NCBI GenBank assembly: GCA_025464645.1
Contig: JAODGF010000005.1
Location: 1-34,406, forward strand
Length of the DNA: 34,406 nucleotides
Origin: Methanosarcinales archaeon
Lineage (GTDB): Archaea > Halobacteriota > Syntropharchaeia > Alkanophagales > Methanospirareceae
Direction of reading: 5' to 3'
The notes under the pieces are model-generated. The model was not told the origin of the DNA, made no database searches, and worked only from the letters and a program-made list of their open reading frames with translations. This document shows, one piece after another, positions 10,790 through 30,693 of this stretch. The position numbers and the translations under genes are program-made. Positions within the stretch are counted from its first letter, which is position 1; each line of letters starts with the position of its first letter.

Positions 10790-10806
10790 CATAAGGAGGA
10801 GCGCGT

Positions 10807-11019
10807 ATGAGCGAAGAGAAGGGAACACCTGCTGAGGTAATAGAAATAGTAGGCAGGACAGGGATGCATGGCGAATCCACGCAGATAAGGTGTAAGGTAC
10901 TGGAAGGGCAGAATAAAGGGAGAATTATAACGAGGAATTGTAGAGGTCCTATAAGAACAGGCGATATCATTGTATTGCTGGAGACAGATAGAGAAGTGAG
11001 GAAATTATTCAGGAGATGA
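10807..11019 (+). CDS. rps28e: Ribosomal protein S28e
   Basis: 70 aa with '[26 protein letters not shown]...[13 protein letters not shown]'. Confidence 0.9.
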
Positions 11020-11025
11020 TTTTAG

Positions 11026-11217
11026 ATGGAGAAGAAATGCTCTTTTTGTGATTCGCCAATAGAGCCGGGTCGAGGGAAGATGTATGTAAAACGCGATGGA
11101 ACAGTTTTTTATTTCTGCAGTTCCAAGTGTGAGCGCAATATGATAAAGCTGAGAAGAAAAAGAAGAAAGGTAAAGTGGACTACGGGTGCAAAAGCGAAAA
11201 AAACGGTGAGCTATTAA
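11026..11217 (+). CDS. rpl24e: Ribosomal protein L24e
   Basis: 63 aa with the zinc-ribbon pattern '[13 protein letters not shown]...[10 protein letters not shown]'. Confidence 0.9.
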
Positions 11218-11689: not shown

Positions 11690-13468
11690 ATGAAAAGAAA
11701 ATTAGCTATCCTTTTGATATTAAGTATATCAGTAATACTACTAACACAAATAGCAGGATCGAGCTATTGCTTTGACGGTGTGCCTTATACAGACAAGCTG
11801 GATTTAGTAGCTCATGGCGCTTTAAAAGGTGGTATATATGTAGGTGAGAGTCGTGCACTTGCCTTCCCACCGTGTACAAGAACCTTCGCAGTGCCAGAGG
11901 ATGTCAAAATCAAGTGGGCGAGGCTGTATGTAGGAGTTTGGGGCGGCACGGAAAGATACACCGGTTGGGTTCACACAAAACTTAACGGGCAAGACCTCGG
12001 CAAGACGTTCCTCCTCGGCGAGAGGGATAACAATCCAAATGTTTATTGTAGTGGTCACGGCGTCTATTGGGTCTTTTATGATGTAGCAGATAAAGTATCG
12101 CCGGGGATAAACACCGCCATAGCGAACACCAGCAGGGGTGAACGTGGGAACAAACTCGATGGCAGGATATATAGTATCATCCTTGTAGCAATCTACGAGG
12201 ACGCGAATGCTCCTGAGATTTCATACTGGGTTGCAGATGGGAATGTGAATCTGCATGGTCTGGGCTGGGCAGGAACGGTGCCGACAACAAACGATTTCGC
12301 TTCGGTGAATTTTAAAGGCGCGATTGATCCCGCGAACGTAGAAGGAGCAGAACTTACCGCGGTTTATCTTGCCGGTAATCCCGGAGAACCAGACTACTTA
12401 GAGTTTAACGGGCAGGGCATAGGAGGAAATGACGTGGCAAACTGCGGAGACGGTGAAACTTACGGCATTGACCTCAAGACCTTTGACGTTACAAGGTATG
12501 TACAGGCAGAGAATAGCGCTCTTTTTCTGAGAGGGAAAGACATTAACGGCGATGGTAAAATAGAAGAGGATGACGAGGGCAACCGTGAGGGCGAGCATTA
12601 TCTTCATCCGGTTCTGACTGTTCTTATTGTTCGGCATAAAACCACAGAAAAAGCAATGCCTGACTTCTCCACCGAACTTGCACTGCCCAAGAATCTAACC
12701 GAGGGGGAGAATATGCTTACTACGGTCATAAATAATTATGGTGGATTGTTCGAGGACGATTTCGTATTGAAGGTCAGTGTTGATGGGTCAGAGATTTACT
12801 CGAAGGTCGTTCGTATGGATGCCAGCGGGATTAAGAAATTGGATGTCCCTTGGACCGCTACGCGCGGCGTGCATACCATCAAAGCAGAAGTTGATGCTGA
12901 GAGAGAAGTAGATGAATCGAACGAGGACAATAATGTTTTCACTTTGGAGGCTTATGTCATGCGTAAACCCGATTTGTCAGTAAAAATTCTAACGCCGGTA
13001 GCGGAGGAGAACCCTTCTTCTACTGCTTCTGCCTCCAGTGCAAATAGCAGAATTGGGATACTTGTAATAATGCCGTTGCTCATGTTTATCACGAAACCGG
13101 GGAATAAAAGAAGTCCCTTAGGTATTTTGATGTTTGTAATTCTGAGCGTTGCGTTGATTTTAAGCGGTTGCGTGGACAAACAGACTAAAGAGGAGCAACC
13201 AGGTATGCTCAGCTATTCGATCCCCGTAGAGATAGAAAATAAGGGAGAAGCAACAGCGATAAATTTTGAGTTATCTCTTTATGTGGATGGTGAGAAAAGC
13301 GTGACCAAAAGGATCAGAGAGTTAGAAGGTGGCAAATCCATCGTTGAAAAACTGCCAATTGTGGTGGCTGAAGGGAAACACCATATACGTGCAGTAGTGG
13401 ATGAGAAGAAAGAAGTTGAAGAATTCAGGAGGGATAATAACGAAGATGAGATTACATTCGATTTTTAG
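11690..13468 (+). CDS. Secreted DUF3344-like (type A module) + CARDB protein with an internal TM hairpin/lipobox and a second CARDB-like domain
   Basis: 592 aa with signal peptide 'KLAILLILSISVILLTQIAG'. Type A motifs are 'KWARLYVGVWGGTERYTGWV', 'NPNVYCSGHGVYW', 'DGRIYSIILVAIYE' and 'YWVADG'. The CARDB hallmark is 'VDESNEDNN'. Two hydrophobic helices at aa 455-493 end in 'LILSGC'. Confidence 0.6.
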   Translation: MKRKLAILLILSISVILLTQIAGSSYCFDGVPYTDKLDLVAHGALKGGIYVGESRALAFPPCTRTFAVPEDVKIKWARLYVGVWGGTERYTGWVHTKLNGQDLGKTFLLGERDNNPNVYCSGHGVYWVFYDVADKVSPGINTAIANTSRGERGNKLDGRIYSIILVAIYEDANAPEISYWVADGNVNLHGLGWAGTVPTTNDFASVNFKGAIDPANVEGAELTAVYLAGNPGEPDYLEFNGQGIGGNDVANCGDGETYGIDLKTFDVTRYVQAENSALFLRGKDINGDGKIEEDDEGNREGEHYLHPVLTVLIVRHKTTEKAMPDFSTELALPKNLTEGENMLTTVINNYGGLFEDDFVLKVSVDGSEIYSKVVRMDASGIKKLDVPWTATRGVHTIKAEVDAEREVDESNEDNNVFTLEAYVMRKPDLSVKILTPVAEENPSSTASASSANSRIGILVIMPLLMFITKPGNKRSPLGILMFVILSVALILSGCVDKQTKEEQPGMLSYSIPVEIENKGEATAINFELSLYVDGEKSVTKRIRELEGGKSIVEKLPIVVAEGKHHIRAVVDEKKEVEEFRRDNNEDEITFDF

Positions 13469-14453
13469 TGGTTTAACTCTTGCACTGATTATCTTTTCCA
13501 TTTTTACTTTTCCTTCAGCATCAGGCTCCTACGCGGGTGACAAGCCGCTCAATACGATAGCGCATGAAGAAATCTATGGCGGTATATTTTTTTCATTGGG
13601 AGATAGCAAATACAGTGGTCGGTTGAATTATAACGATACTTACGAGGTCAATTTTGAGCTCGGCGTGCTGAACACAGATAGAGATAAAGGAGTGAAATTA
13701 GCCAGGCTGTATGTCTATTGGGTCTGGAGCCAAAAAGAGAACGTGGGTGTGTACCCCATAATGGAAGTAAGGGCACCGGCAGAAAAAGAAGTTCTGAGTT
13801 CAGTCGTTACATACACGGATACGAAAGGATTTGTGGGTAAGTATGATTACTTCTCCGGCGTCAGTGTTTACAGTTGCAATTTAGATGGCGACTCCTACTC
13901 GGTTACCGTTAAAAACGTGGATGTAAATGGAAGCACTTTTTGCGTGCAGGGAATCGGATTGTTGGTGATATACGAATGTCAGGAGCAGGAGCCAGATCAA
14001 GATTGCCAGCTCATAGAGTACTGGGTCACTGAAGGCTGTGACATGATATATGCAGAGTATGGAATCACGCCTGAGATGGCTACCAGTAAGATTTTCTTTG
14101 ACGGTGAGCTGGAGTTGAAGAGGGTGAAGCGGGCATATTTAATAACCGTGGTTCCTTCAGGAGGATACGTATCAGGCGGAGAGACAGCGCATAATAAGCT
14201 TTACTTCAATGAAAAACGCGGGTGGCTTAGCAATCTCCCGTTCTTGAACCAGTTGCTGAGATTATTGTTCGGCTACGGTGGTGGTGTTTGGAGCGATGTG
14301 TATATTGCGGATAACACGGTCCAGATAGGAGTGGACCAGCGGGATGTTACTGAATATCTGAAGGCAACGAACAATTTTGCCGCAGTTCAAGATAATCATG
14401 ATTACATGATGGTGACAAATGCGGTGCTGGTGGTGGAGAAGGAAGAGAGATGA
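13446..14453 (+). CDS. Secreted single-module DUF3344-like protein (type B module)
   Basis: 335 aa from the ATG at 13446, with signal peptide 'LTLALIIFSIFTFPSASG'. Type B motifs are 'FFSLGDSKYSG', 'ARLYVYWVWS', 'GLLVIYE', 'EYWVTEGCDMIYA', 'LYFNE', 'DVTEYL' and 'DYMMVTNAVLVVE'. It overlaps the upstream gene by 23 nt. Confidence 0.6.
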   Translation: MRLHSIFSGLTLALIIFSIFTFPSASGSYAGDKPLNTIAHEEIYGGIFFSLGDSKYSGRLNYNDTYEVNFELGVLNTDRDKGVKLARLYVYWVWSQKENVGVYPIMEVRAPAEKEVLSSVVTYTDTKGFVGKYDYFSGVSVYSCNLDGDSYSVTVKNVDVNGSTFCVQGIGLLVIYECQEQEPDQDCQLIEYWVTEGCDMIYAEYGITPEMATSKIFFDGELELKRVKRAYLITVVPSGGYVSGGETAHNKLYFNEKRGWLSNLPFLNQLLRLLFGYGGGVWSDVYIADNTVQIGVDQRDVTEYLKATNNFAAVQDNHDYMMVTNAVLVVEKEER

Positions 14454-14484
14454 ATGGGCAATAAAAAATAAAATCACGTAAGAA

Positions 14485-15168
14485 ATGACCGTGGAAACGA
14501 GGGATTTAACAAAATATTACTGGATGGGAAAGGAGAAAGTAGTTGCTTTAGATCGCGTGACCCTGAAGATGGAAGAGGGGGAGTTCATATCTGTGGTGGG
14601 TCCTTCTGGGTCGGGGAAGTCCACGCTTTTAAATATCATCGGATGTCTGGATGCACCAACGAAGGGCGAGGTCTATCTGGCAGGATGGAAAGTAGATTAC
14701 AGAAATAAGCAGTCGTTGGTGAGGTTGCGGCGGAATTTTTTGGGGTTTGTGTTTCAAACGTTCAATTTGATACCGGCATTGAATGCGGTGGAGAACGTGG
14801 AGTATCCAATGTATTTCAATAAGGGCGGGAGGAGCAAAAGCGAGAGAAGAGAGAGTGCGATGAAGTTATTGGCGATGGTTGGTCTTGAAAAGCGTGCCAA
14901 TCATCTTCCTTCTGAACTCTCTGGTGGTGAGCTGCAAAGGATAGCGATAGCAAGAGCGCTTGCCAACGACCCAAAGCTTATACTTGCTGACGAACCTACC
15001 GGGAACCTTGACTCGCGAACAGGGAAAAGCATATTGAGTTTGCTCAAGCGGTTAAACGAAGAAGAAGGGAAAAACATCATCATGGTGACGCACGATCTGG
15101 AATCGGCGAAGAAGATGAGCAGGGTAATTAGGATATTAGACGGGAGGATAATGAGCAATGAAAAATGA
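14485..15168 (+). CDS. ABC transporter ATP-binding protein, MacB/LolD/FtsE-like
   Basis: Walker A 'GPSGSGKST', signature 'LSGGELQRIAIARAL' and Walker B 'ILADEPTGNLD'. At 227 aa it is typical of the COG1136 class. Confidence 0.85.
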   Translation: MTVETRDLTKYYWMGKEKVVALDRVTLKMEEGEFISVVGPSGSGKSTLLNIIGCLDAPTKGEVYLAGWKVDYRNKQSLVRLRRNFLGFVFQTFNLIPALNAVENVEYPMYFNKGGRSKSERRESAMKLLAMVGLEKRANHLPSELSGGELQRIAIARALANDPKLILADEPTGNLDSRTGKSILSLLKRLNEEEGKNIIMVTHDLESAKKMSRVIRILDGRIMSNEK

Positions 15169-15203
15169 AAGTGTAAAAAGAAAAAAAAGGGAAATAATGT
15201 GAT

Positions 15204-16415
15204 ATGAAAGAGTTATTTGCCTTAGCGAGCAGGCAGTTGAGGAGGAAGAAATTGCGCGTGTTTCTTATTGTGCTGGGGATAGCCATAGGAGTTGCCGCGG
15301 TAATTGGCGTCACATCGCTGGGTGAAGGAATTCGCGTTCAGGCGGTTGAGCAAATCAAGGCTTCTCATGATTTAACTACGATAGAGGTTTCAGCAGGTAT
15401 AGAAGCGGGCAGTGTTACGCTGATAACTGATTCAAAACTAAAAGCGATTGAAACGGCTGAACACGTTTTATTCGTGGCTCCATACGTGAGGGACTCGTAT
15501 GTCACGCAAAATAATACGTATCTTGCGGTTATGGGTGTCACCCCTGAGTATAGACAGATTCATGGTAATCTGCAATTGGAGAAAGGAAATTGGTTTAGTG
15601 AAAAAGGGAACCCCGGTGAGATTGTATTAGGCTACGACGTTGCAAAAAGACTGTCAATAATAGAGGATTTAGGATTGGGTGATGAGTTTGCGGTAAAAAT
15701 CAGGTTATACGGCGAGGAAGGGCGTCCAAAGGATAAAACTGCTGTGTTCAAGATCGCGGGCATACTGAAATCATCAGGTGATGAGCATGACAACCAGGTG
15801 TTTGTAGGTATCAAAGAAGCGATGGAGATGGATGAGAAAGATGCTTATGATGGGCTATTTGTAAAGGTAGATGACCCTGCTTTCGCTGCTTCTATAAGGG
15901 ATAGGGTAGAGGGTCTTGGATTGACTGCACATTCTGCGCAGGATGTGATTGATGAAGTAAACAAGCTGATGGTGGCAGTAACACTGGTTTTAGGCTTTTT
16001 TTCCGGTATTTCACTCGTTGTTGGCGCGCTTATGGTGGTGAACACGATGATTATCTCGGTTTACGAGCGAACGAAAGAGATAGGGCTGTCAAAGGCGTTA
16101 GGGGCATCGGATTTTGATATTATGAAGATGTTCCTTGCAGAGTGCGTGATTATAGGCGCCATAGGAGGAATTTTTGGCGATTTGCTGGGGATTGGCTTCT
16201 CTGTGTTGATAGACGTCGTAGGTAAACCTTTCCTGGTAAGTGCGCTTGGAGGCGAGTTAGGTACGGGTTTACAATCGGGCAGCATCACAGCGGTCACACC
16301 GTGGATATTGGCAGCGGGATTCGCGATTTCGCTGGTTCTTTCGATTGTGTCGGGTTTGTATCCCGCGAGAAGAGCGGCGAGGTTGAATCCGCTGGATGCG
16401 TTAAGGCAAATATAG
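15204..16415 (+). CDS. ABC transporter permease, FtsX/MacB-like (4 TM with a large extracytoplasmic domain)
   Basis: 403 aa. TM1 is at aa 18-39, followed by a ~210-aa soluble loop and then a three-TM FtsX-type C-terminal bundle ending 'GLYPARRAARLNPLDALR'. Confidence 0.8.
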   Translation: MKELFALASRQLRRKKLRVFLIVLGIAIGVAAVIGVTSLGEGIRVQAVEQIKASHDLTTIEVSAGIEAGSVTLITDSKLKAIETAEHVLFVAPYVRDSYVTQNNTYLAVMGVTPEYRQIHGNLQLEKGNWFSEKGNPGEIVLGYDVAKRLSIIEDLGLGDEFAVKIRLYGEEGRPKDKTAVFKIAGILKSSGDEHDNQVFVGIKEAMEMDEKDAYDGLFVKVDDPAFAASIRDRVEGLGLTAHSAQDVIDEVNKLMVAVTLVLGFFSGISLVVGALMVVNTMIISVYERTKEIGLSKALGASDFDIMKMFLAECVIIGAIGGIFGDLLGIGFSVLIDVVGKPFLVSALGGELGTGLQSGSITAVTPWILAAGFAISLVLSIVSGLYPARRAARLNPLDALRQI

Positions 16416-16688
16416 TATTTTGAAAAAGCCCTTCGAGATCGGTCGTTCCTTGGAAGACTTTCCAAAAAGGATGTTTCTAACACATGTTTTGAACTCTTAC
16501 CTGTTTTCCTTACCTCAAATCCCCCCGTGGTTTATATATAATTCTCCTTGTGGTAAGAGGCGGTAACTATTTCCATGAAAATCTTTTTATTTACCTCAAC
16601 AATAAAAAATTTATATCTTACTGAAAGATAAAAGGCGAAGATATGAGCGAGGGAAAAGGAAGCAAAAAGCATGAAAGTATAATCCATG

Positions 16689-16717
16689 CCCCTTACGTGG
16701 TTCGAATCCATGAGGGG
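16689..16717 (+). other. tRNA-like T-arm/acceptor minihelix (not a complete tRNA)
   Basis: CCCCT-TA-CGTGG-TTCGAAT-CCATG-AGGGG. This is a canonical GGTTCGAATCC T-loop in a 5-bp stem, stacked on a second 5-bp stem. No D-arm or anticodon arm lies upstream. Confidence 0.3.
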
Positions 16718-16857
16718 AAATGGGGCAAGTTAGGCAGTACCCCAATAGGTGAGAAGAAAAGGGAGGAAAAAAGTTATTTTGGTAAACCTTTTCTCCCACG
16801 CGCCGAGTAGGGGCGCGATATAAATACCAAAACAAATAGGAGGTGAAAAGAAAAAAG

Positions 16858-19800
16858 ATGAATAACAAAAATGGTATAGTATTGCTTGGAATAGTTGCGT
16901 TTTTTGCATTGGTTGCAATGACGGCGACAGCTTCTGCACAGCCAGCAGAGAACGTGGTTTGGCTCGAACCCGAGAATAGTAGTGTTCCAGGATATTGCAA
17001 CACCGTAGAGGTAGAAGTATGGGCTAACATAACTGATCCAGATGGATGTGCAGGTGGCACATTAAATATCACATACGATCCGGGATGTGCTAATGTAACA
17101 GATTGGGAACTCAACACTGTTGCTTGGCCAATGGGAACCTGGAATTCAAGTATCGAAGGCAGAGAGTGGATAACTTTCGAGACCATATTTAACCGAACTG
17201 GCAATGTACTAATTGGAACGCTGGCAATTCATTGCAAAAGTACAAGTTCATGCACAACTCCTTTGATATTCGATGAGGGTAGTTCATTGCTTGCAGAACC
17301 AGATGTAGAATGGAAAAACGGCACATTCACCTGTGAGGTCCCCAAACCCGACCTGAACGTGACTAAGGTTGAGGTGAATTATGATGCACCTGGTCTTGGT
17401 GGAAGAGCAGTCGGACCTGAACCTGGTCCTGGTGTGCACACGCAGTGTAACAACCTCTCTGCGGTGATAGAAAACCGCGGAGTATGCGTTGTATCTCCGT
17501 TCGATGTTACGTTTGAAGTAGATGGAACTACGTTATGTACAGTCCGAGTTCCTGGCTTGCCAGTTGGAGCTACCAAAACAGTGTATTGCAACTGTTCATG
17601 GTACCCCATGGCGGGGGACAGCTTTGCGATAAATGTCACCGTGGATTCTAATAACGAGATTCTTGAGTCCGATGAAACGAATAACACGATGTGGAATAAT
17701 GGAACAGTCGTTTCCAATGGCTACAAAGGCGGTGGTTGGCAGGGTCCTGACAGAAACCTGACAAACGTGCAGTGCCACTCACAAGATACGATCAATCTGA
17801 CCTATTCTGTCGGTGACAGCTATTATGCGAAAGGAAACTGGAGCGGAACTACGGAGTATGTGGTCAACTGGACTGCAAGTGATTTACCTGTTCCCGAGAA
17901 TGCAACCATCGAGAAGGCATGGCTATACGTGTATTATACATGGGACAAAGAGGGGATAATGCCAGACGGGGTTAACCTGAAGTTCAATGGTAACAATATA
18001 CCATTCGCTAGAAACTACTCGGACCGCAAGGGATTCGACGGTTATAACTATCCATACGGAATGCTAGTGTACGACGTGACCATCGCATTTACTGCAACGG
18101 GCAATACAGCAGTACTGACAAAAGCTACTCCTGATACCTACATACCGGTAAAGGGAACGCTTCTTATGGTTGTCTATAAGCATCCGGACGAGCCAGAGCG
18201 GATAATCTGCATTGACGAAGGATATGACATGATAAACGCACAGGCATCTTATGGTGTTACGCCGGAAGAGGCAACTACTTACGCCACATTCGAGTGCTGT
18301 GAGCCGATACCACTGAGCGAGATAGGAAAGGCTACACTGGTAGCTGTTGCGCCTGGTGCCAGTAAGGGGGATGACAAAAACAGGCTCTCATTCAATGGCG
18401 GACTATGGAAAGGAGCATGGTCAGGCTTTGCTGGGAGCACTGAACTCGGCATCGCTGAGACAGATGTACTAAATTATCTCAAAGAGGAAAACAACGTAGC
18501 AAACTTCCAAGACCGGGGCGACTGGATGGAAGCGAGCAACGCGTTCTTGATCTTGGAGAAAGGGATCGCAGAAAAGCCAGACTTAAAGGTGACGGAAATC
18601 GAGCTAAACTGCGGTGGCTACCTATTTGGAAACGAAAGCAATGAAATATGTGCAAAGATTGAGAACAACGGCAGCGGGGATGCAGGTGCATTCAATGTGA
18701 GCTTTGTTATTGACGGTTTCACCAAAGAAGCAAGAATAAACGGGTTGCCGGCAGGTGAAAATATAACGGTGTGCATTAAAGACACAACGAGCAGAAATGC
18801 TGGCGATTCCGTGAATGTTACCGTTACCACAGATTGCAATGGTGAAGTCTCCGAGTCGGATGAGACGAACAATGAATCCGCGATGACTACAACGGTAGTG
18901 AACAACGGCTACAAGGGCAAACGATACACGGGTGGCGATGACATCACTACATGGAAGACGTTTGAACTCCACGGTAACCTGGTGTACTCGCTTGGTGATA
19001 GCTACTATCTGAGTTCATACTCCTATCCTGACTGGACAACCTACACAGTCAATTGGACTGCAAGCGACCTGCCAGTTCCTGATACTGCAACCATCAAAGA
19101 AGCAAGATTGTATGTGCCGTACACATGGGACAAAGGAGGAGTAATGCCTGATGAGGTCAGCCTGACATTCAACGGAGTTGCTCAAACACTTGCTGCACAC
19201 TATTCAGATAGGAAAGGATACGGTGGCTACGATTACCCATACGGGATGCTGGTGTACAACGTAACCGGAGATTTTGATACAAGTGGCAATACCGCAGTTC
19301 TGCTCAACTCACATCCGGGTGGTGACAATGTATCCATACGCGGAATGCTCCTGGTAGTTGTGTATGCAGATGAGTGCGAACTGCCGCAGCGGAAACTATT
19401 TGTCAATGAAGGGTTCGACATGCTCTATGGTGGCGCATCTAAGTGTACAACGCCCGAAGAAGCAACGGCGTATGCACCATTCGGTGCGATGAAGATAGAT
19501 ATATCAAAGGTGGATAGTGCCAAACTGATAACCGTTGCCCCGGGTGCGGGTCCAAATGAAGGCGACCTGCTCTTCAATGGTCGGAGATGGAATGACGTGT
19601 GGAGCTTTACTACCGCTGCACAAATAGGCATTGATGAGCGCGATGTGACTTCCTATCTGCGTCCAACAGATAATGAAGCAGGGTTCCAGAGCAGCGGCGA
19701 CTACATGGAGGCAAGCAATGCCTTTTTGGTTGTGACGGAGAAAATAACAGAAGCAGAATACCAGAATATGATAACTCAGCCGATAGATGTCAGTAAAATC

Positions 19801-20010
19801 CGCTATAAGTTTATAGCCGTGAATGAGGAATGGGCAGCCAAATGGAGCAATGTGCTATTGTATGGACAGAGGGATACGAAGTATTCGATTGAGATACACC
19901 TAAATAAGGCGGGATATGTGACGAGTGTGGCTTTCGAGCGATGGGGCTTCCCAATAGCAGAGATCCCCGTTGAGCTTGCAGCACAGTCCTTAGCTAAGTT
20001 AAATCCATAA
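16858..20010 (+). CDS. Large secreted glycoprotein: cohesin-like domain + 2 x (CARDB + DUF3344-like type B module) + unknown C-terminal domain
   Basis: 1050 aa from the ATG at 16858; the ORF also opens at GTG 16843. Signal peptide is 'IVLLGIVAFFALVAMTATASA'. CARDB hallmarks are 'ILESDETNN' and 'VSESDETNN'. Type B motifs occur twice: 'SVGDSYY', 'WLYVYYTWDK', 'YSDRKG..GY.YPYGMLVY', 'NEG.DM' and 'ASNAFL'. I count 28 N-x-S/T sequons. Confidence 0.65.
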   Translation: MNNKNGIVLLGIVAFFALVAMTATASAQPAENVVWLEPENSSVPGYCNTVEVEVWANITDPDGCAGGTLNITYDPGCANVTDWELNTVAWPMGTWNSSIEGREWITFETIFNRTGNVLIGTLAIHCKSTSSCTTPLIFDEGSSLLAEPDVEWKNGTFTCEVPKPDLNVTKVEVNYDAPGLGGRAVGPEPGPGVHTQCNNLSAVIENRGVCVVSPFDVTFEVDGTTLCTVRVPGLPVGATKTVYCNCSWYPMAGDSFAINVTVDSNNEILESDETNNTMWNNGTVVSNGYKGGGWQGPDRNLTNVQCHSQDTINLTYSVGDSYYAKGNWSGTTEYVVNWTASDLPVPENATIEKAWLYVYYTWDKEGIMPDGVNLKFNGNNIPFARNYSDRKGFDGYNYPYGMLVYDVTIAFTATGNTAVLTKATPDTYIPVKGTLLMVVYKHPDEPERIICIDEGYDMINAQASYGVTPEEATTYATFECCEPIPLSEIGKATLVAVAPGASKGDDKNRLSFNGGLWKGAWSGFAGSTELGIAETDVLNYLKEENNVANFQDRGDWMEASNAFLILEKGIAEKPDLKVTEIELNCGGYLFGNESNEICAKIENNGSGDAGAFNVSFVIDGFTKEARINGLPAGENITVCIKDTTSRNAGDSVNVTVTTDCNGEVSESDETNNESAMTTTVVNNGYKGKRYTGGDDITTWKTFELHGNLVYSLGDSYYLSSYSYPDWTTYTVNWTASDLPVPDTATIKEARLYVPYTWDKGGVMPDEVSLTFNGVAQTLAAHYSDRKGYGGYDYPYGMLVYNVTGDFDTSGNTAVLLNSHPGGDNVSIRGMLLVVVYADECELPQRKLFVNEGFDMLYGGASKCTTPEEATAYAPFGAMKIDISKVDSAKLITVAPGAGPNEGDLLFNGRRWNDVWSFTTAAQIGIDERDVTSYLRPTDNEAGFQSSGDYMEASNAFLVVTEKITEAEYQNMITQPIDVSKIRYKFIAVNEEWAAKWSNVLLYGQRDTKYSIEIHLNKAGYVTSVAFERWGFPIAEIPVELAAQSLAKLNP
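17341..18564 (+). repeat. Internal tandem duplication unit 1 (CARDB + type B module)
   Basis: aa 167-574 align along their length with aa 578-967 of the same protein. Confidence 0.7.
18574..19743 (+). repeat. Internal tandem duplication unit 2 (CARDB + type B module)
   Basis: Shares the same motif order as unit 1, for example 'VNWTASDLPVP' in both. Confidence 0.7.
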
Positions 20011-20035
20011 AACGAAGGAAAAAAGGAACAAGGAT

Positions 20036-20069
20036 AGCTCCTACCAAGGAGCTTTTTATTTTTTTATTT
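20036..20069 (+). terminator. Hairpin + T-tract terminator
   Basis: AGCTCCT-ACCA-AGGAGCT (7-bp stem) followed by TTTTATTTTTTTATTT, 26 nt after the stop at 20010. Confidence 0.55.
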
Positions 20070-20085
20070 ATTAATAACTATCGTG

Positions 20086-20093
20086 TTTATATA
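20086..20093 (+). promoter_or_regulatory. TATA box (TTTATATA)
   Basis: Consensus octamer centred ~29 nt upstream of the ATG at 20119. This is consistent with a leaderless mRNA and argues against the GTG at 20083 as start. Confidence 0.45.
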
Positions 20094-20118
20094 TGATGAG
20101 GGGGTAAAGAGCGGAAAA

Positions 20119-22395: not shown

Positions 22396-24425
22396 AAAAA
22401 ACGGTAACGGTAGTCGCAATTGCATTCGCATTAGCATGCTTGTTTTTGCTTTTAAGCTTAAGCATGCTTGCACCTGCTTTAGCGCAGGATGATGTGCCAG
22501 ACCTTGGAATTACTGCGATTAAACCTTATCATTACGAGTGGTATGAGGATTATGACATACCTAAGGGTGAGCCGTGGTTCAACCTTAAGAACTATGTGGA
22601 AGTTACCGTAGTGAACTTCGGGAATAAGACTGCCAAGAGTTTCGTGGTGAGACTGTACGCGGATGGAGAACTAATAGGGAGCAAAACGGTTGATGAATTG
22701 CCAGCATATTCAGAAGATTATCCAGAAGCCAATACCACAGACGTGGAATTCGAGTGGGTGCCTGAAGGAGAAGACCCCTTGAGCTGGATTGATAGCGCAG
22801 AAGGAGCTAAACTCGTTTATACCGATACTAATAGGATTTACACGCTAAAAGCGGTTGTTGACGAGAATATGAATGAACTCACAAAAGACCATGAAGTAGC
22901 TTGGAACGGCTATATGGCGGATGCAGCCTTAGAGAACCTTGTACACGACACGGTAAACGGAGGGATATTATACACGACTGGAGATGGTGAATACAGGAGT
23001 TATGAGAGTGGAGATGATGGTACTAGATATAACACATACTATGACATCAATTATGATTTAGAGATTGCAGAGGGCGCAAAGCTGGCAAGATTGTATATCT
23101 ACTACACATGGTCGAAGTCAAAGGGTGTTAAAGAACCAAAAGCGCCGAAGATAGGTGTTACCCTGAAGACGCCATCAGGTATCACTCATGATCTGAGCAT
23201 GGAAAAGAGCTATAACGATATAAAAGGTAATTTACCCCCGCCTTACCACACGTATAGGTATTATGCCTGGGGGACTTATACATACGATATTACGGATTAT
23301 ATGGAAGAAAGCGGAACTTATGTGGTGAGCGTGACGAACCTGAATGATGGAAGTGACGATGACTTCGCAACTGAGTATTCGTTTGCACCTCCTGCTATTC
23401 TCCTGGTATATGAGGATACAGCAGCGCCGAAAAGAGAATATTGGATAAATGAAGGTGCAGACGTCCTAATGGGAGGGGGGGATGAAAGACCAGAGGGAGG
23501 TTTTCTTGACTTAGAAGATTGCCTTAATCATGCTGAGTTCCCAGGAGAGCATTTAGATTTGGAAGTAGAGGAAGCAGTACTTGGCGTTGTCGCTCCATGG
23601 GCAGATGATTCGGAAGACGATGTCATTTACTTTAATGGCAGAGAACTTGGAAGAGGTTTGTATAAGGGATACCATAATGAATATAGAAGCAGCGAGGATA
23701 TAAAGGGCATTTTAATGAATATTGGTACGGATAAGGCACAAATAGGGATGGCTGCGATTGATGTTAAAAGGTACCTCGAAGATTCTGACAATGAAGTAAT
23801 CCAGGGCGATGACGGGGACAACATGATGCCTGCGAATGCGTTCTTAGTGATAACATATAAAGAAGAAGAGGAAGGGGAAGGCGAAGGAGAAGGAGAAGGA
23901 GAAGTTACGCTAGCTTCTCCAAACATAACTGCCTGGAACCCCTTTGATGCGGTTGTAAACAGCACAAAGGGCGAATCAAGAACGTTCAACATCACCGTAA
24001 ACCAGACAGTAGGTATTAGCTGGCAAATAAATGGTACAGAAGTGCAAACAAATGAAAGCGTGACAGAAGCTGCCTACACGAGCACAAGCGCAGTTCTTGG
24101 AACCTGGAACGTCTCTGTAATGGCAACTAACACATCAACCGGATTATTCGATATGCACACATGGACGTGGCACGTAACACCTGCACTTACTGTAACGCCT
24201 ACACCTGCGAAAGCCATAACTACAACACCTTCACCTACTCCATCTCCAATTTTAATATCAACACCTGCCGTACCAGGTGCTACACCAACTCCCACACCAG
24301 TTCCAACACCTTCTGCCGAGGAAAAGCCAGGAGCAGAAGAAAAAACACCGGGATTTGAACTTGTAATCTCGTTATTTATATTAATTGCAGCAGCGTATCT
24401 AATAAGAAAGCATGAACGGAAATAA
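22392..24425 (+). CDS. PGF-CTERM-anchored protein: CARDB + DUF3344-like type B module + (EG)n linker + Ig/PKD-like domain + Thr/Pro linker
   Basis: 677 aa with a signal peptide. It is a paralogue of aa 316-770 of the upstream protein. The C-terminus is 'TPGFELVISLFILIAAAYLIRKHERK' (PGF tripeptide + TM + basic tail). ATGA start/stop overlap with the upstream gene. Confidence 0.7.
   Translation: MKKTVTVVAIAFALACLFLLLSLSMLAPALAQDDVPDLGITAIKPYHYEWYEDYDIPKGEPWFNLKNYVEVTVVNFGNKTAKSFVVRLYADGELIGSKTVDELPAYSEDYPEANTTDVEFEWVPEGEDPLSWIDSAEGAKLVYTDTNRIYTLKAVVDENMNELTKDHEVAWNGYMADAALENLVHDTVNGGILYTTGDGEYRSYESGDDGTRYNTYYDINYDLEIAEGAKLARLYIYYTWSKSKGVKEPKAPKIGVTLKTPSGITHDLSMEKSYNDIKGNLPPPYHTYRYYAWGTYTYDITDYMEESGTYVVSVTNLNDGSDDDFATEYSFAPPAILLVYEDTAAPKREYWINEGADVLMGGGDERPEGGFLDLEDCLNHAEFPGEHLDLEVEEAVLGVVAPWADDSEDDVIYFNGRELGRGLYKGYHNEYRSSEDIKGILMNIGTDKAQIGMAAIDVKRYLEDSDNEVIQGDDGDNMMPANAFLVITYKEEEEGEGEGEGEGEVTLASPNITAWNPFDAVVNSTKGESRTFNITVNQTVGISWQINGTEVQTNESVTEAAYTSTSAVLGTWNVSVMATNTSTGLFDMHTWTWHVTPALTVTPTPAKAITTTPSPTPSPILISTPAVPGATPTPTPVPTPSAEEKPGAEEKTPGFELVISLFILIAAAYLIRKHERK
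23862..23903 (+). repeat. GAA/GGN hexanucleotide-type microsatellite encoding EEEEGEGEGEGEGE
   Basis: gaagaagaggaaggggaaggcgaaggagaaggagaaggagaa, including three perfect GAAGGA units at 23883..23900. Confidence 0.8.
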
Positions 24426-24978
24426 AGAGAAAATACTGGCGATATTATTAACTGTCGCCGTGATACTTGTAATTTCGTCAAGCTCTGTTGTACTTACATC
24501 TATTACCACTGCTAAAGCTTCTGATACCACTGTAACGCGCATCCTATCCACGGCAAATCCCCGTCCTGGTTCAACATTCGATGTCACGTTGGACATAGAG
24601 GGGCTGCAAATCGGTGGCATCGTAGAGATGATCCCCGACGGTTTTGCATTCCTCCGCACTACACATCCTTCAAATCAAACTTATGTATCAGGGCAGAAGG
24701 TTGTCTTCGTTGTGGTCAATGAAACTTCGATAAAATATGAAGTGCGAGCACCCTCGGAAGGGAGTGGTACTTTCAGTGGAACGTGGTATGATGCCCTTAA
24801 CGAAAAGGAGGGGGATAGTGGTAGTACGAGCGTCTCTGTGAGTATGGCGGGAACACCCTCACCATCTCCCGCAGTACCAGGATTTGAAGTGGTATTTACG
24901 CTTACTGGATTGTTTGTAGTGGCGGTTCTGTTTTTATTTATTAGTAGAAGAGAAAGAGGAGGTGAAAGAGGTGAATAA
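24412..24978 (+). CDS. Small PGF-CTERM-anchored beta-sandwich-like surface protein
   Basis: 188 aa with an N-terminal signal/TM, one ~120-aa domain, a 'GTPSPSPA' linker, then 'VPGFEVVFTLTGLFVVAVLFLFISRRER'. It overlaps the upstream gene by 14 nt. Confidence 0.6.
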   Translation: MNGNKEKILAILLTVAVILVISSSSVVLTSITTAKASDTTVTRILSTANPRPGSTFDVTLDIEGLQIGGIVEMIPDGFAFLRTTHPSNQTYVSGQKVVFVVVNETSIKYEVRAPSEGSGTFSGTWYDALNEKEGDSGSTSVSVSMAGTPSPSPAVPGFEVVFTLTGLFVVAVLFLFISRRERGGERGE

Positions 24979-26053
24979 GTTAAAAGCGGTCTTTTTTTGC
25001 CTGGTATTTATGTGTGTCTTGTGTTCCTCTACGAACATCGTTTTTGCTGATGATATAGACAGCTTATTAAACAAGTGTGCAATCGCGCCCAATCCTAAAC
25101 CCTCTGTGATGGTGTATGATTACGAACTCAATCCAGAGACGTTGATGCCCGGTGACGTGGGTGTACTTACGATAACGCTTAAGAATATGCAGGATAAGCC
25201 AATAGAGAAGGATGTGGATATAAAGAGTGAGATAAAAGGTACCGGGGGTTACGTTACCGACATTGACACCGAGACAAGATTCACCATGGACGCCTACCTA
25301 AAAGAAGCATATATCGTTGAGCATGAATTTAAAGTATACAACAGGTATGCCTCGGTCGGCGTAATAGGACCAAATGAAAAAGTTGAGCTGGGATTTAAAA
25401 TAAAAGCACCGTCAGAAGAAGGCATATACATGCTGAAGTTCATTGCGGACATTGAAGATATGGAAGGCAAAAGGAGTAAAGGGATTCGTTATTTTATTCC
25501 GATTACGGTCACAGGTACAGTGAATATATTACCTCTGAGAGTTTCTGAGAGCGAGGTCTCCTTAGAAGTTATAAATGAGGGACTATCGGATGTTGATAGC
25601 GTGTATATTGCTGTTTCACCCGCAAGCGAAGTGGAATGGCAGCAGGAAAGAGTGTACGTTGGAAAGATAAAGTCTGGCGAGTCTGCTATTGTGGTGTTCA
25701 AGTTTAAAGTCAATGAAGTTAAGAATAAGGAAGGAGGGAACAGTGCTATTTTCAAAGCTACTTATAGGAACGGGATAAACAAGCACGAATCAAATCCGGT
25801 ATCTGTGAGCCTGCCGTGCTGCTCGGCGGAGGAGGAAAAAGCTAAGGGGAAAGGAGAATCGTTATTAGGAGAGGAATCTAAAGCTTCTTTTAGCGCTCTC
25901 ACAGTAACGCCAACACCAACTCTTTCATCATCTTCTTCGAGTTCTACATTCGCATTAAAATTAACAGACTTTGGAGTAGTATCTGCACTTGCCGGACTGC
26001 TGTTTGGAGTAGCGGTAGCATTTGCGAAAAAAAGAGGTGAGGAAGGGAGATGA
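24971..26053 (+). CDS. Secreted COG1361/CARDB-like two-domain protein with a Ser/Thr linker and a variant C-terminal anchor
   Basis: GTG at 24971 lies 8 nt after GGAGG; the ORF also opens at GTG 24962. 'NPETLMPGDVGVLTITLKN' is typical of archaeal S-layer-domain (COG1361) proteins. The C-terminus is 'TPTPTLSSSSSSS...LTDFGVVSALAGLLFGVAVAFAKKRGEEGR'. Confidence 0.55.
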   Translation: MNKLKAVFFCLVFMCVLCSSTNIVFADDIDSLLNKCAIAPNPKPSVMVYDYELNPETLMPGDVGVLTITLKNMQDKPIEKDVDIKSEIKGTGGYVTDIDTETRFTMDAYLKEAYIVEHEFKVYNRYASVGVIGPNEKVELGFKIKAPSEEGIYMLKFIADIEDMEGKRSKGIRYFIPITVTGTVNILPLRVSESEVSLEVINEGLSDVDSVYIAVSPASEVEWQQERVYVGKIKSGESAIVVFKFKVNEVKNKEGGNSAIFKATYRNGINKHESNPVSVSLPCCSAEEEKAKGKGESLLGEESKASFSALTVTPTPTLSSSSSSSTFALKLTDFGVVSALAGLLFGVAVAFAKKRGEEGR

Positions 26054-27297: not shown

Positions 27298-27303
27298 AGG
27301 ATT

Positions 27304-30300
27304 TTAAGATAACAAATCTACCCTTATTGTTTTTCCTTCCATCACTGCTTCTTCTGGCACGCTTATCTCTCTCTCTAAATCCCACACTACCGTTCCGTCC
27401 TCCAGGCGACGACCAGTACGTATTTTATAAGATGATGCAAAAACATCGTATCCTTCAACCGTTTTTTCTGTTGAATACGGCACGACGAACTCGTATGTGC
27501 CGTTTGACCTCACTTGCTGTGAATACACAAATTCTCTCCCCTGGTTTGTGGTGACGTTTGTTGCTATTTCAACAATCGAGCCATTAGGCGCAGTTCCCTC
27601 TATTCTCGCCCCTTTTACGTATTCGAATGTCTTCACAAAACTCACGGGCTGTATATATTCCGGTGCCCATGCTTTTATGTTTGGTTGCCCGGTTTTGACG
27701 CCATAAAGGTAAACGTTTAGCTTTCCTTCTTTCTTATTGATGTTAAATATGTTTTCATTTGTCGTGTCTCGGATTGTCCAACGGGTCCCGTCAATTGTTA
27801 TAACCGTGCTATCCTCAGAAAGCGGAAAGCCCGTGGAATTAAGCGCGCTGCTCAATATTTCGGGTATGCTCTCATTATCCAGAACTTCCTCTATCCCTAC
27901 CCCTGCGGGCATACTGAACAAATACCCGTGAAGAATCTGCGCTTGCGATTCCGTGTTGATATAATCACCGGAAAAAGGTCGCCAATACATCTTCCCCTCT
28001 TTTTCGTCTATAATAACCAAAGGAAGAACAAAAGTGGGAGACTCATGCACTAACCGGTAGTGAGCTAAGGCGGGTATGTTTTCACCATCTACCTCTACTC
28101 TTGTACCATCAAATAGATGCAACCGCGCTTCCATCGTATTATAATAGCGTGAAAGGGAGTTAAAGTATTGTGAGTTCCCAGCCCAAACCGTTATCGCACT
28201 GAACTTTGGCGTACGACCTAACCAAGAGCATATCCCCCATACATCCGCCATTTCCAAGTCGCTTATCACATATCTCGTGCCGAGTTCGTCTAATATCCAA
28301 TTCGCTTCCCCTTCATCACTCGATACGAAGAACGTGCATGCGCCGGGTCTTATCGAGCCATCCTCATTTGTACCACCTATACCACCCTGAAACGGATTTG
28401 AATTGGGAATGCGATGTGCATAAAGTGTTATCACGTGTCCGTAATCCCACCAGCTCATCACGCCGTAAGCGCTATCCGGATATTTGTAATCTTCATTACG
28501 CGGAGGTTCTTCGTATAGCGCATAGTAATCCACGCCCGGATCGGGAGTATTGTTTCTCATCCACAATAACGATTCGTACCAATCAGGGTGGAACACAGAA
28601 GGACCAGCCTTGGCTTGGTAATATGTGCGCTCAAAATTCTCCGGCATGTTCGCAGGGAAGGGTTTAGCTATATTGAACGGGAACGGATAAAAGATAATGA
28701 AAATCACTACAATTAATACTATGATGCGATTTGGCGTGACATACTGCTTTATCTTTCTAATACCCGTTTCAGGCACTTCCTTTTTCTTACTTTCTACCTT
28801 CTGTCCCCGCTTTCCCTCCTCCTCCTTCTGCTTTTCTTTCTTCCCTTTGATCCTTTTTCCTTCTGCCTTCGGTTTCCCCGTCTCAGCGAAAAAAGCGAAG
28901 CTAAACTGAGTCACCCGAACAGCGAATAAGCCGCAAAGTAGTGCCACGTTTACCGCGTAATAATACACAAACCGATTTTGACCAATTGGTGGAGGGCGAA
29001 TACCAAACATGTCAAACATTACACCCAGTAACATGAGGTCTACAAAACACCAAACGAGAAACAGGGTCTCTTCAGGTCTCCATTTCCGTATTACACCGTA
29101 AATAACAAATGCAAAAGCGACAAGAGAGACGTAAAAACAGGTGGAAAAGTGTCCTAAGGCTGCACCCAGTGTCATTGGATGCATTTCCCCTATTACCTGC
29201 ATGCCTGTACTATACTTTACCCAACCCATTGCATGTATCAGCGAAGCATATTGAGATGGAAACAGCACATTTAAAAAAACTAAAGCCAGTATGCCCATGC
29301 CCAAAACCGCAACAGGATAAGCATGGCGAGCTATTCCTTTTCTTGTCATAACTGTTGATAGGATACTTAACAGCAAGACCACAAGCGCTCCTATGAGCAG
29401 TGAGGCTACATGTGCCGACCTATACATCCCCGGATGCTTCAAGAACGGTATGATCATTAATAGCGGAATCAGAAATACCGGGACACCGACCATGCATAGA
29501 TAATCCGTGGAATTGCCACGTAAATGCTCTATGAGGTACAGAGCGAAAAGAGCGACAAAAATGATGAAAGCGAACAAGACGCAACCAACCCAGGTAAGTG
29601 CATAAAGACCAAAAGAGAAACCCGCGAGGAAAATATAGACTAAGGGATTTCTTAAGGTTTTCCAATCTCCTCTCGCTATGTGGTCAAAAGTTATGCCAGC
29701 GGTTTTTGCTCGTTTCAGTGCCATCACCAGAAACATCATTGCTATCGTGCTGAATAAGACTTCTCCAACATGATGGTCCATTGCACCTAAGATGGAGCGA
29801 AACAAGAAACCGGGTAATATAGCGATTAAAAATGCAGAGAGCAAACCCACTTCCCTGCTATATAATTCTTTACCGATGAAATAAACAGGGAAAACAACCA
29901 GAGCACCGAGGACAGCGGGGTAATATGCCCCTACGGTCTCCATTAGCATGCGCGTGGGTGCGCCCAAGCTGATAAGCCATGTAAAAAATGCAGGTATCAG
30001 GTCAAATAAAGGAGCAAAATGAAGATGGTCGCCATGCGGGAAAAGAGTATAGGGGTCGAAATAAATCCTGTGTGGGAAATGATTGCCAAAAAGCATGTTC
30101 TCTATTAATCTTAGGTGATATACGGGGTCATCAGAACCAAACATCACCATTTCTCCACCAAAAACGCGCGCATAAGGCAGTACAGTTCTTATGATGAGGG
30201 AAATGCCAAAAACAGTGAAAAGGATATTGAACACGGGGAGTCTTTCGATGAGGTCATGCAGGTTCACACCCTTTTGTGTCTTTGCATCACCAAAAGTATC

Positions 30301-30693
30301 GACAAAATGGGCTTTGTTTGATATAATAATTGGCACCGCGATTACGCCCACCGCGATAAAAGACACAAAGCACACCCAGTTTTCCGCCAAAAAGCTTGGC
30401 GGGCTAAAGGCGGTGGTGAGAGGATAGATAATTATAAGGGATTCAAGCAAAATTAGCGCAGCATAAAACGCCCCTTTCTTTCGCAGCCAGATTCCGTATG
30501 CAATCGGGAAAGCAGAAAGGGCAAAGATGTCTAAAATCCCTGAGGAGGCACTTAGCTCTGACACGAATAGCGCGTGAAGAAGAGAAATGAGGGCGACTAA
30601 ACCGCAAAAAACAAGCAGCATAGTGGTTATCTGTATGCCTAAAGCTTCTGTTACCCTTCTGTTCTCTTTCCTCTCTTGCTGTGGTCTTTTCAT
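27304..30693 (-). CDS. aglB: Archaeal oligosaccharyltransferase AglB (STT3 family), long form
   Basis: 1129 aa and multi-TM. 'GSDDPVYH' (first acidic loop motif) follows a TM helix. 'WWDYGH' lies at nt 28438..28452. A large C-terminal soluble region ends in a CarboxypepD_reg/Ig-like segment. Confidence 0.85.
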   Translation of the reverse strand: MKRPQQERKENRRVTEALGIQITTMLLVFCGLVALISLLHALFVSELSASSGILDIFALSAFPIAYGIWLRKKGAFYAALILLESLIIIYPLTTAFSPPSFLAENWVCFVSFIAVGVIAVPIIISNKAHFVDTFGDAKTQKGVNLHDLIERLPVFNILFTVFGISLIIRTVLPYARVFGGEMVMFGSDDPVYHLRLIENMLFGNHFPHRIYFDPYTLFPHGDHLHFAPLFDLIPAFFTWLISLGAPTRMLMETVGAYYPAVLGALVVFPVYFIGKELYSREVGLLSAFLIAILPGFLFRSILGAMDHHVGEVLFSTIAMMFLVMALKRAKTAGITFDHIARGDWKTLRNPLVYIFLAGFSFGLYALTWVGCVLFAFIIFVALFALYLIEHLRGNSTDYLCMVGVPVFLIPLLMIIPFLKHPGMYRSAHVASLLIGALVVLLLSILSTVMTRKGIARHAYPVAVLGMGILALVFLNVLFPSQYASLIHAMGWVKYSTGMQVIGEMHPMTLGAALGHFSTCFYVSLVAFAFVIYGVIRKWRPEETLFLVWCFVDLMLLGVMFDMFGIRPPPIGQNRFVYYYAVNVALLCGLFAVRVTQFSFAFFAETGKPKAEGKRIKGKKEKQKEEEGKRGQKVESKKKEVPETGIRKIKQYVTPNRIIVLIVVIFIIFYPFPFNIAKPFPANMPENFERTYYQAKAGPSVFHPDWYESLLWMRNNTPDPGVDYYALYEEPPRNEDYKYPDSAYGVMSWWDYGHVITLYAHRIPNSNPFQGGIGGTNEDGSIRPGACTFFVSSDEGEANWILDELGTRYVISDLEMADVWGICSWLGRTPKFSAITVWAGNSQYFNSLSRYYNTMEARLHLFDGTRVEVDGENIPALAHYRLVHESPTFVLPLVIIDEKEGKMYWRPFSGDYINTESQAQILHGYLFSMPAGVGIEEVLDNESIPEILSSALNSTGFPLSEDSTVITIDGTRWTIRDTTNENIFNINKKEGKLNVYLYGVKTGQPNIKAWAPEYIQPVSFVKTFEYVKGARIEGTAPNGSIVEIATNVTTNQGREFVYSQQVRSNGTYEFVVPYSTEKTVEGYDVFASSYKIRTGRRLEDGTVVWDLEREISVPEEAVMEGKTIRVDLLS

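Follow-up and report, generated by a model that had tools for sequence, protein, structure and literature searches.

A conserved cassette of DUF3344 proteins and a type VII ABC pair beside a variable array of DUF3344/CARDB paralogues in methane-cycling archaea

The DNA analyzed here, referred to as the window, is a stretch of 34,406 nucleotides (nt) from a Methanosarcinales archaeon (assembly GCA_025464645.1, contig JAODGF010000005.1, positions 1 to 34,406), in which ten open reading frames (ORFs) located between 11690 and 27297 on the forward strand each encode an envelope protein. The first four genes of this island (11690-16415), coding for two proteins with the DUF3344 domain, named P1 and P2, and for the ATPase and the permease of an ATP-binding cassette (ABC) pair, constitute the only part of the island which is conserved as a unit; the following genes belong to a lineage-variable array of DUF3344/CARDB paralogues. 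In the reading that we prefer, whose chances should be placed somewhat below even, the pair is a type VII ABC mechanotransmission complex which has P1 and P2 as outside partners and serves a lectin-like DUF3344 surface coat. This reading was reached from the gene order P1-P2-ATPase-permease, a transmembrane (TM) hairpin in P1, the type VII character of the pair, the predicted fold of DUF3344, the restriction of its partner domains to display modules and a contrast in glycosylation sequons.

The conserved four-gene cassette

The first cassette gene (11690-13468, + strand) encodes P1, a protein of 592 amino acids (aa) for which Pfam, hydropathy and the alignment of orthologues indicate successively a signal peptide, a DUF3344 domain (residues 36-314), a CARDB domain, a first TM segment, a cytoplasmic KPGNKR loop, a second TM segment ending with LSGC and a C-terminal CARDB domain (residues 507-585). 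P2 (13446-14453, +, 335 aa), encoded by the second gene, is made of a signal peptide and a single DUF3344 domain (193 bits in Pfam) without anchor. The ATPase of the MacB/LolD/MJ0796 type (14485-15168, +, 227 aa) and the type VII ABC permease with its FtsX C-terminal domain (15204-16415, +, 403 aa) come next. P1 and P2 overlap by 23 nt, and gaps of 31 and 35 nt separate P2 from the ATPase and the ATPase from the permease. An earlier note on this DNA had described P1 and P2 as two secreted DUF3344 proteins; the description holds for P2, whereas P1 possesses an internal transmembrane hairpin.

The conservation of the cassette was studied in flanks of ±10 kb around P2. A scan with one genome per species gave 80 loci, the related loci amounting to 90 in total, and adjacencies were counted where the P2 orthologue reached 44% identity or more. 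A common order was observed: a DUF3344+CARDB protein (~590 aa), a DUF3344 protein (~330 aa), an ABC ATPase (~225 aa) and a MacB_PCD/FtsX permease (~400 aa), with stop and start codons which are often overlapping. This four-gene order is present in all Pfam-annotated contigs with P2 homologues at 46-77% identity, and the conservation of overlapping or abutting codons argues for co-translation of a complex. The ATPase gene lies directly 3' of the P2 orthologue in 37/40 loci and the P1 gene directly 5' in 31/33, and the permease gene is adjacent in 19 of 30 loci, those without it belonging almost all to the genus Methanosarcina. With P2 identities of 36-86%, the cassette was found in ANME-1/Methanophagales (anaerobic methanotrophic archaea, ANME), Methanoperedens, ANME-2a/2c, Methanosarcina and Methanomicrobiales, three loci of the latter (L050-L052) harboring the full cassette at 36-38%. 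The reverse look-up, centred on the permease, recovered the same cassette in the three long contigs out of three; the top 120 permease homologues listed all have at least 54% identity. The closest homologues of P2 and of the permease are labelled Methanophagales or ANME-1, which places the window in a genome of the ANME-1/Methanophagales type. The ABC pair never adjoins the more distant DUF3344 paralogues (<38% identity, no P1 upstream), so that the linkage is specific to the P1 and P2 orthologous groups. The association of DUF3344 with an ABC pair, put forward in the earlier note, is thus strong across several archaeal orders.

Some loci display an altered cassette. In L024 (G37ANME1, 1.19-Mb contig, 8362-11074), P1, devoid of hairpin and lipobox, and P2 occur with no ABC pair within 10 kb. 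In L030 (9600-11494), P2 is truncated and the permease is kept. In the metagenomic locus L099 (7290-9998), P1 is split into two ORFs and an ORF of 449 aa joins DUF3344 to ABC_tran; since these two domains belong on opposite sides of the membrane, this fusion is most likely the product of a frameshift, a pseudogene or an assembly error.

The ATPase matches PF00005 (6e-32) and its motifs are intact: Walker A (GPSGSGKST, residue 39), signature (LSGGE, 145), Walker B (LILADEPT, 165) and H-loop (VTHD, 201). Its closest solved structure is MJ0796 (E 1e-76), followed by LolD. The permease matches PF12704 (MacB_PCD, 1.9e-29, residues 20-236) and PF02687 (FtsX, 1.2e-20, residues 265-396), and hydropathy points to four TM helices with a MacB_PCD domain of ~220 aa exposed outside the cytoplasm between TM1 and TM2. 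This outer domain is of the MacB_PCD type and not the short ECL1 type of FtsX. The closest solved structures of the permease are YtrF, MacB and LolF/LolE, which are all type VII ABCs. With intact ATPase motifs and a 4-TM permease carrying MacB_PCD and FtsX domains, the pair is predicted to be a type VII ABC of the MacB/FtsX family. In NCBIfam, all equivalog models stay below their cutoffs: LolD (TIGR02211, 239 vs 307.75), LolC/E (TIGR02212, 106.6 vs 362.45), FtsE (196.5 vs 264.85), the FtsX models (28-54 vs 225-255) and likewise MacB.

The cassette resembles the characterized type VII ABCs (MacB, LolCDE, FtsEX, YtrEF, BceAB) by its ATPase of the LolD/MJ0796 type, by its 4-TM permease with a large outer domain and by the presence of extracytoplasmic partners encoded beside the ABC genes, as in the case of EnvC, PcsB, MacA and lipoproteins. 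It differs from them by its archaeal host, which has neither outer membrane nor peptidoglycan, and by its partners, tandem jelly-roll DUF3344 proteins, one with a TM hairpin and an internal lipobox, a kind of partner not known in those systems. In archaea, the MJ0796/MJ0797 system of Methanocaldococcus jannaschii is a LolD-like ABC which has served as a model for ATPase dimerization. To our knowledge, MJ0796 has been studied only as an isolated ATPase and no DUF3344 partner has been reported for it; we know of no archaeal MacB/FtsX-type ABC with an assigned role. A second and distant MacB-type module (25-27% identity), composed of an ATPase and two FtsX permeases, is located ~5 kb upstream of the cassette in two ANME-1 relatives (L021, 500-3613; L022, 933-5199), and in L022 it is preceded by a secreted CARDB-like protein similar to P9, the ninth protein of the island. 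This arrangement hints that the pairing of a MacB-type ABC with a secreted beta-sandwich protein could be a wider archaeal theme.

The hairpin of P1 (13055-13171, +) is formed of TM1 (residues 456-468), a basic loop (469-474), TM2 (477-490) and a lipobox-like L-S-G-C (residues 491-494, nt 13160-13171). The stretch of the lipobox type, KPGNKR...LGILMFVILSVALI-LSGC, covers residues ~470-494 and is consequently internal, not N-terminal. It was compared with the pattern of archaeal lipoproteins which are substrates of AliA/AliB, consisting of a basic n-region, a hydrophobic h-region and [L/V/I][A/S/T/V/I][G/A/S]C. The orthologues of P1 present the same succession of TM1, short basic loop and TM2 ending with [L/F/C][S/C/G]-G-C, situated in the same alignment column in 36/40 sequences. 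In these 36, G-C is invariant although the helices and their surroundings show little conservation; the only exceptions are L024 and three Methanomicrobiales sequences. The hairpin should be regarded as a predicted lipoprotein-signal-peptide pattern in an internal position.

DUF3344 modules, their fold and the variable array

The earlier note had recognized in the island a repeated module which it supposed to be DUF3344 and always next to CARDB. The identity of the module is confirmed: PF11824 matches seven stretches in five proteins (P1, P2, P5 twice, P6 twice and P7) with 149-450 bits for a gathering score of 27.2 bits. CARDB was detected by Pfam in P1, P5, P6 and P7; P2 carries DUF3344 alone, so that the second part of the statement does not apply to it. 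Of the other profiles which it had recommended, FtsX was confirmed and PGF-CTERM gave marginal matches; MacB_PCD and Peripla_BP_2 were detected as well. For P2, 161 homologues were found; its invariant positions are numerous and comprise the SYAGD of the mature N-terminus.

Models of P2 (pLDDT 75, pTM 0.78) and of the C-terminal DUF3344 of P5 (nt 18925-19737; pLDDT 93.7, pTM 0.92) were built with AlphaFold2. In both, DSSP assigns two consecutive eight-stranded beta sandwiches (2 x 8 strands) of the jelly-roll type. The Foldseek matches common to the two models are tandem modules of the carbohydrate-binding module (CBM) type from glycoside hydrolases, GH172/DUF2961 and PNGase F; all TM-scores are ≤0.3 and the lectin-like assignment is made by general architecture only. 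The sequence profile of DUF3344 gave no match at E ≤ 1 among solved structures. These models suggest a tandem jelly-roll for DUF3344, lectin/CBM-like in appearance, whose membership of a known fold family is not demonstrated. It shares two consecutive eight-stranded sandwiches per chain with the double jelly-roll families GH172/DUF2961 (8ic8, 7v1v, 8ah3, 4kq7), PNGase F (1pgs, 3pms) and tandem CBMs, and differs from them by the lack of global superposition (TM-score ≤0.3 and root-mean-square deviation >13 Å for all double jelly-roll matches); compared with GH172 and PNGase F, it has no sequence similarity and no identified catalytic residues. GH172 and PNGase F have been described as cellular double jelly-roll proteins (Krupovic 2022, PMC8812541). 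A kinship with viral double-jelly-roll capsids was rejected: SGIV, STIV, PR772 and PBCV-1 were matched only by the model of pLDDT 75, with TM-scores all ≤0.3, and viral capsids are not among the top 50 matches of the model of pLDDT 93.7.

All array genes are carried by the forward strand. P5 (16858-20010, 1050 aa) possesses a signal peptide, an N-terminal domain without family, CARDB, DUF3344, CARDB, DUF3344 and 85 C-terminal aa without family, and no anchor. P6 (20119-22395, 758 aa) has a signal peptide, a DUF3344 of the P1-like subtype, CARDB and a second DUF3344. In P7 (22392-24425, 677 aa), a signal peptide, CARDB and DUF3344 are followed by a Glu/Gly linker, a beta-rich region without family, a Thr/Pro-rich stalk and a PGF-CTERM segment (24348-24422). 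P8 (24412-24978, 188 aa) is a small secreted protein with PGF-CTERM at 24877-24975. P9 (24962 or 24971 to 26053, 363 aa) is secreted, weakly CARDB-like (sub-threshold match, E 0.011) and, from hydropathy, anchored by a C-terminal TM helix. P10 (26050-27297, 415 aa) is a substrate-binding protein of the Peripla_BP_2 family whose N-terminus carries an anchor or a signal, and no cognate permease or ATPase was found for it in the window. The overlaps are of 4 nt for P6/P7, 14 nt for P7/P8 and 4 nt for P9/P10. The PGF-CTERM matches (PF18204; 20.7 for P7 and 20.5 for P8, cutoff 18.8) are marginal and positionally C-terminal, P8 being below the cutoff of TIGR04126 in NCBIfam; Pfam scans of the window proteins revealed no archaeosortase. 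The unassigned parts of P5, P7 and P8 gave no Pfam matches, and neither cohesin nor dockerin was detected in the N-terminal domain of P5.

On the 3' side of the cassette the genomes differ: two to six DUF3344/CARDB proteins of varied architecture occur, some with dockerin or cohesin, and in one relative a transposase interrupts the array. The genes after the cassette in the window are the local version of this lineage-variable array. P9 recurs in three loci, with an orthologue of 62% at the array end in L007/L008 and a relative in L022. A Peripla_BP_2 protein of the P10 type is near DUF3344 in only 4/90 loci, and no homologue of P8 was detected in any of the 90. The domains which co-occur with DUF3344 are CARDB, dockerin, cohesin, TSP3, PGF-CTERM and PKD, all of them display or anchor modules; none is catalytic.

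The dense N-glycosylation sequons attributed by the earlier note to the whole array are a property of P5, P6 and P7 (28 observed vs 11.6 expected, 23 vs 9.2 and 10 vs 4.6, respectively, or 2.2-2.5-fold over composition); no enrichment was observed in P8-P10, nor in the cassette. Across the family, the density per 100 aa is 0.49 for P1 orthologues, 0.89 for P2 orthologues and 1.82 for the other paralogues (p = 1.4e-8, the kinship of the sequences being uncorrected). This contrast fits cassette proteins which are close to the membrane and engaged in a complex, and array proteins which are exposed.

Like the S-layer glycoproteins of Haloferax volcanii processed by the ArtA/PGF-CTERM system, P7 and P8 are secreted and carry PGF-CTERM, with a Thr/Pro-rich stalk and sequons. 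The resemblance stops there: no sequence relation to the HVO_2072 family exists (19 bits vs a cutoff of 400 bits), most island proteins have other anchors or none, and the window lacks an archaeosortase gene. Another comparison concerns the networks of surface proteins which ANME archaea build with dockerin and cohesin (Timmers 2017, PMC5244752; Chadwick 2022, PMC9012536); in these papers DUF3344 appears only in supplementary domain tables, and the cassette linked to the ABC pair is not described. The DUF3344/CARDB proteins of relatives carry dockerin or cohesin and a role in adhesion or display is suggested likewise, whereas the copies of the window have no dockerin or cohesin detectable by Pfam.

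A second conserved module, of the energy-coupling factor (ECF) type, is found with DUF3344 genes in three groups (ANME-2, Methanoperedens and Methanosarcina) and is absent from the window. It comprises a fused double ABC ATPase, CbiQ/EcfT, a DUF3344 protein of ~320 aa with a C-terminal TM helix and a protein of ~370 aa which joins an outer CARDB-like domain to a domain with 6 TM helices weakly matching the ECF S-component family PF09819 (E 0.005). Ig-like ectodomains would be an unusual feature in an ECF S component. This module was located at 12948-18685 in L009 and also in L005, L001, L029, L031, L035, L040-42, L045, L046, L056, L071, L073 and others.

Proposed role of the cassette and alternatives

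In the mechanism that we propose, P1 would be held beside the permease by its transmembrane hairpin, displaying DUF3344 and CARDB on one side of the hairpin and the small C-terminal CARDB, possibly lipid-linked, on the other, and P2 would be a free and soluble DUF3344 protein. By analogy with MacB, LolCDE, FtsEX and YtrEF, ATP hydrolysis in the cytoplasm would drive a movement of the outer domain of the permease, and this movement would do mechanical work on P1 and P2 outside the membrane, with no pumping of a solute. The array (16858-26053) would provide heavily N-glycosylated DUF3344/CARDB paralogues, retained by PGF-CTERM, a TM helix, dockerin (in relatives) or no anchor, in which DUF3344 would act as a lectin/CBM-like binding head. 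From the models, the most likely task of the island is to construct and service a surface coat which binds glycans or is adhesive; the "assembly and maintenance system" of the earlier note was a hypothesis and is retained as such. We infer that P1 and P2 associate physically with the permease, that the pair works by mechanotransmission in preference to transport, that DUF3344 binds a ligand and that the core has a link with the array which exceeds paralogy and adjacency.

Several observations weigh against this proposal. The linkage of genes does not prove a physical interaction of their products, and it is itself incomplete: in four Methanosarcina loci (L040-L042 and L045) the permease is situated upstream at a distance of ~8.6 kb, on the same strand, the 10-kb flanks showed none in the remaining loci of this genus, including M. 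barkeri CM1 (L001), and the ATPase is missing in L024 and L030. The low TM-scores of the fold comparison and the kinship underlying the sequon statistics count in the same direction, as does the small number of polar residues invariant throughout the DUF3344 family (D95, D165, N218 and N250), which neither proves nor excludes a binding site. No experimental study of any gene of this family was found in the literature. Finally, members of the MacB family can also be true exporters.

This last point leads to an explanation that we judge unlikely, in which the pair is a conventional exporter or resistance pump resembling MacB, BceAB or YtrEF and acting on a peptide, a lipid-linked compound or a toxin, P1 and P2 being MacA/YknX-like adaptors or substrate capturers and the array being unrelated. 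MacB and YtrF are among the closest solved homologues, the top NCBIfam matches of the ATPase, after LolD, include MacB, DarD and bacteriocin exporters, and P1, anchored in the membrane with large outer domains, is adaptor-like. However, the cassette contains no membrane-fusion adaptor of the HlyD type, sensor kinase or regulator, neither HlyD/MFP nor TolC families being detected in the window proteins or in annotated relatives; genes for the biosynthesis of a product to be exported are lacking in the vicinity, and the partners are lectin-like beta-sandwich proteins with many paralogues encoded alongside.

Two other explanations give more weight to the lipobox. In the first, which we consider doubtful, P1 would be cut at its internal lipobox and anchored there by a lipid, and the type VII ABC would spend ATP on the loading, release or rearrangement of tandem jelly-roll DUF3344 proteins in a glycoprotein coat lying outside the membrane, thereby constituting an undescribed archaeal machine, a functional counterpart of Lol and FtsEX for the surface layers of methanogens and methane oxidisers. 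In the second, quite unlikely in our opinion, lipid-anchored proteins would be extracted by the ABC pair from the cytoplasmic membrane in a Lol-like manner and transferred to an outer envelope layer, with P2 as soluble acceptor; the candidates are the lipobox-bearing C-terminal portion of P1, or PGF-CTERM proteins to which an archaeosortase would have added a lipid. The motif of 36/40 P1 orthologues, LolD as best NCBIfam match of the ATPase, the end-to-end alignment of the permease with LolC/E and with the LolF/LolE structures, and the PGF-CTERM proteins of the island are compatible with this Lol-like extraction, and archaeal lipoproteins with their lipidation enzymes AliA and AliB are established (PMC12462473). 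Against it, all Lol scores are far under the equivalog cutoffs, the lipobox is internal and absent from Methanomicrobiales orthologues which retain the cassette, and P2 is modelled as a tandem jelly-roll and not as a LolA-like half-barrel. Moreover, the archaeal envelope has no outer membrane, and no LolA/LolB-like gene was revealed by Pfam among the window proteins.

The capture of a nutrient, a metal or a cofactor, in which a scarce ligand would be retained at the surface by DUF3344 and passed to importers with the participation of the orphan Peripla_BP_2 protein, is very unlikely. The ECF-type module does adjoin DUF3344 genes in about 21-24/90 related loci, a Methanoperedens plasmid has DUF3344 ORFs between NikR and EcfT/EcfA genes (PMC9674854), and Peripla_BP_2 proteins are present in four loci and in the window. 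But the window has neither ECF module nor FecCD permease, MacB-type ABCs are not importers, the linkage to binding proteins is sporadic and the DUF3344 copies compared contain no conserved Cys/His metal site.

The literature on DUF3344 yielded no description of the cassette, of the hairpin/lipobox or of the fold, and for archaeal MacB/FtsX systems only bacterial work was found. What is new here is the occurrence, in another domain of life, of a known kind of machine, a type VII ABC with putative outer partners, the partners being themselves of a new kind. DUF3344, a family of thousands of members which is abundant in ANME consortia, gains a predicted fold and a likely role as a lectin-like display head; in these consortia cell-cell adhesion underlies syntrophy. 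The building and remodelling of the envelope are little known outside haloarchaea and Sulfolobales, and the presence of the cassette throughout methane-cycling Halobacteriota, including the genetically tractable Methanosarcina, provides an entry point which is directly testable.

AglB and the other neighbouring genes

The oligosaccharyltransferase AglB (27304-30693, - strand, 1129 aa; Pfam STT3, AglB_core and AglB_L1) is convergent to P10 and separated from it by 6 nt. This distance, the ten same-strand envelope genes and their gaps and overlaps are as the earlier note had given them. The linkage to aglB that it had expected to be conserved is not observed: none of the 90 loci encodes an AglB homologue at a distance of 10 kb or less from the cassette. 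The AglB of the window is situated 13 kb from P2, beyond flanks of ±10 kb which could not reach it, and a metagenome scan centred on AglB and the permease-centred look-ups were added for this reason. In the relative L091 (85% AglB identity), the binding protein is kept, convergent to AglB. In L094 (75% identity, 86-kb contig), no DUF3344 or binding-protein gene lies within 10 kb on either side, and in ANME-1 AG-394-G21 (L097) the array ends beside radical-SAM and VWA genes. On synteny (0/90 loci, L094 and AG-394-G21), AglB is thus rejected as a conserved member of the system; it is a recent and local neighbour, which supplies N-glycans to the island proteins only in the general sense in which it does so for all secreted glycoproteins. 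A single ten-gene surface-glycoprotein assembly system coupled to AglB, as the earlier note had imagined from the tight same-strand packing, the dense sequons of P5-P7 and the proximity of AglB, is highly improbable, since the adjacency is kept only at AglB identities of at least 85% (L091), is lost at 75% and is absent at all other array ends seen, and the array differs in gene number and architecture in every lineage.

AglB is unusually long: STT3 does not begin before residue 185, about four additional TM helices being predicted ahead of it (30250-30693), and a Lys/Glu-rich insert of 42 residues (606-647; 28753-28878) precedes the last TM helix. The homologue in L094 is split by ~1.2 kb. 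At 2305-7838, the window contains three glycosyltransferases of the GT4 family, whose N-domains resemble starch synthase, together with a GH57 enzyme; these genes look like glycogen/alpha-glucan metabolism and not N-glycan synthesis; this cluster gives no support for a glycosylation island around AglB.

The A/T-rich region 5' of P5 contains its own TATA-like boxes, and the terminator proposed for this gene was recovered as a hairpin with a T-run at 20036-20061, on its 3' side. A scan for sigma-70-type promoters gave 27 sites vs 29.8 expected, the bacterial consensus being uninformative for an archaeon. No structured RNA of the island reached the Rfam gathering score and no tRNA was found. An anti-phage defence system was discarded as a candidate, PADLOC having given only generic ABC and LolE_TM matches.

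Upstream of the island, the window harbors orc1/cdc6, near which no convincing origin-type repeats were seen, and an archaeal L7Ae-S28e-L24e-NDK operon. In the latter, an apparent gap of 385 nt between L7Ae and NDK (10808-11200) corresponds to two unlisted small genes, S28e (10808-11020) and L24e (from 11027), which complete the classic operon. Only 38 nt separate the end of ndk from the start of P1, and read-through from this highly expressed ribosomal operon is therefore possible.

The conserved cassette is separated from the variable array by a spacer of 442 nt (16416-16857), in which lies a tRNA-like minihelix (16689-16717), similar to an acceptor/T-arm, with the sequence CCCCT-TA-CGTGG-TTCGAAT-CCATG-AGGGG. 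ARAGORN called no tRNA at this position and the fold is no better than that of shuffled sequences (z = -1.35). In the relative L006, a Y2 transposase is found at the corresponding junction of cassette and array (13200-13718), suggesting that this boundary may be a recombination hot spot.

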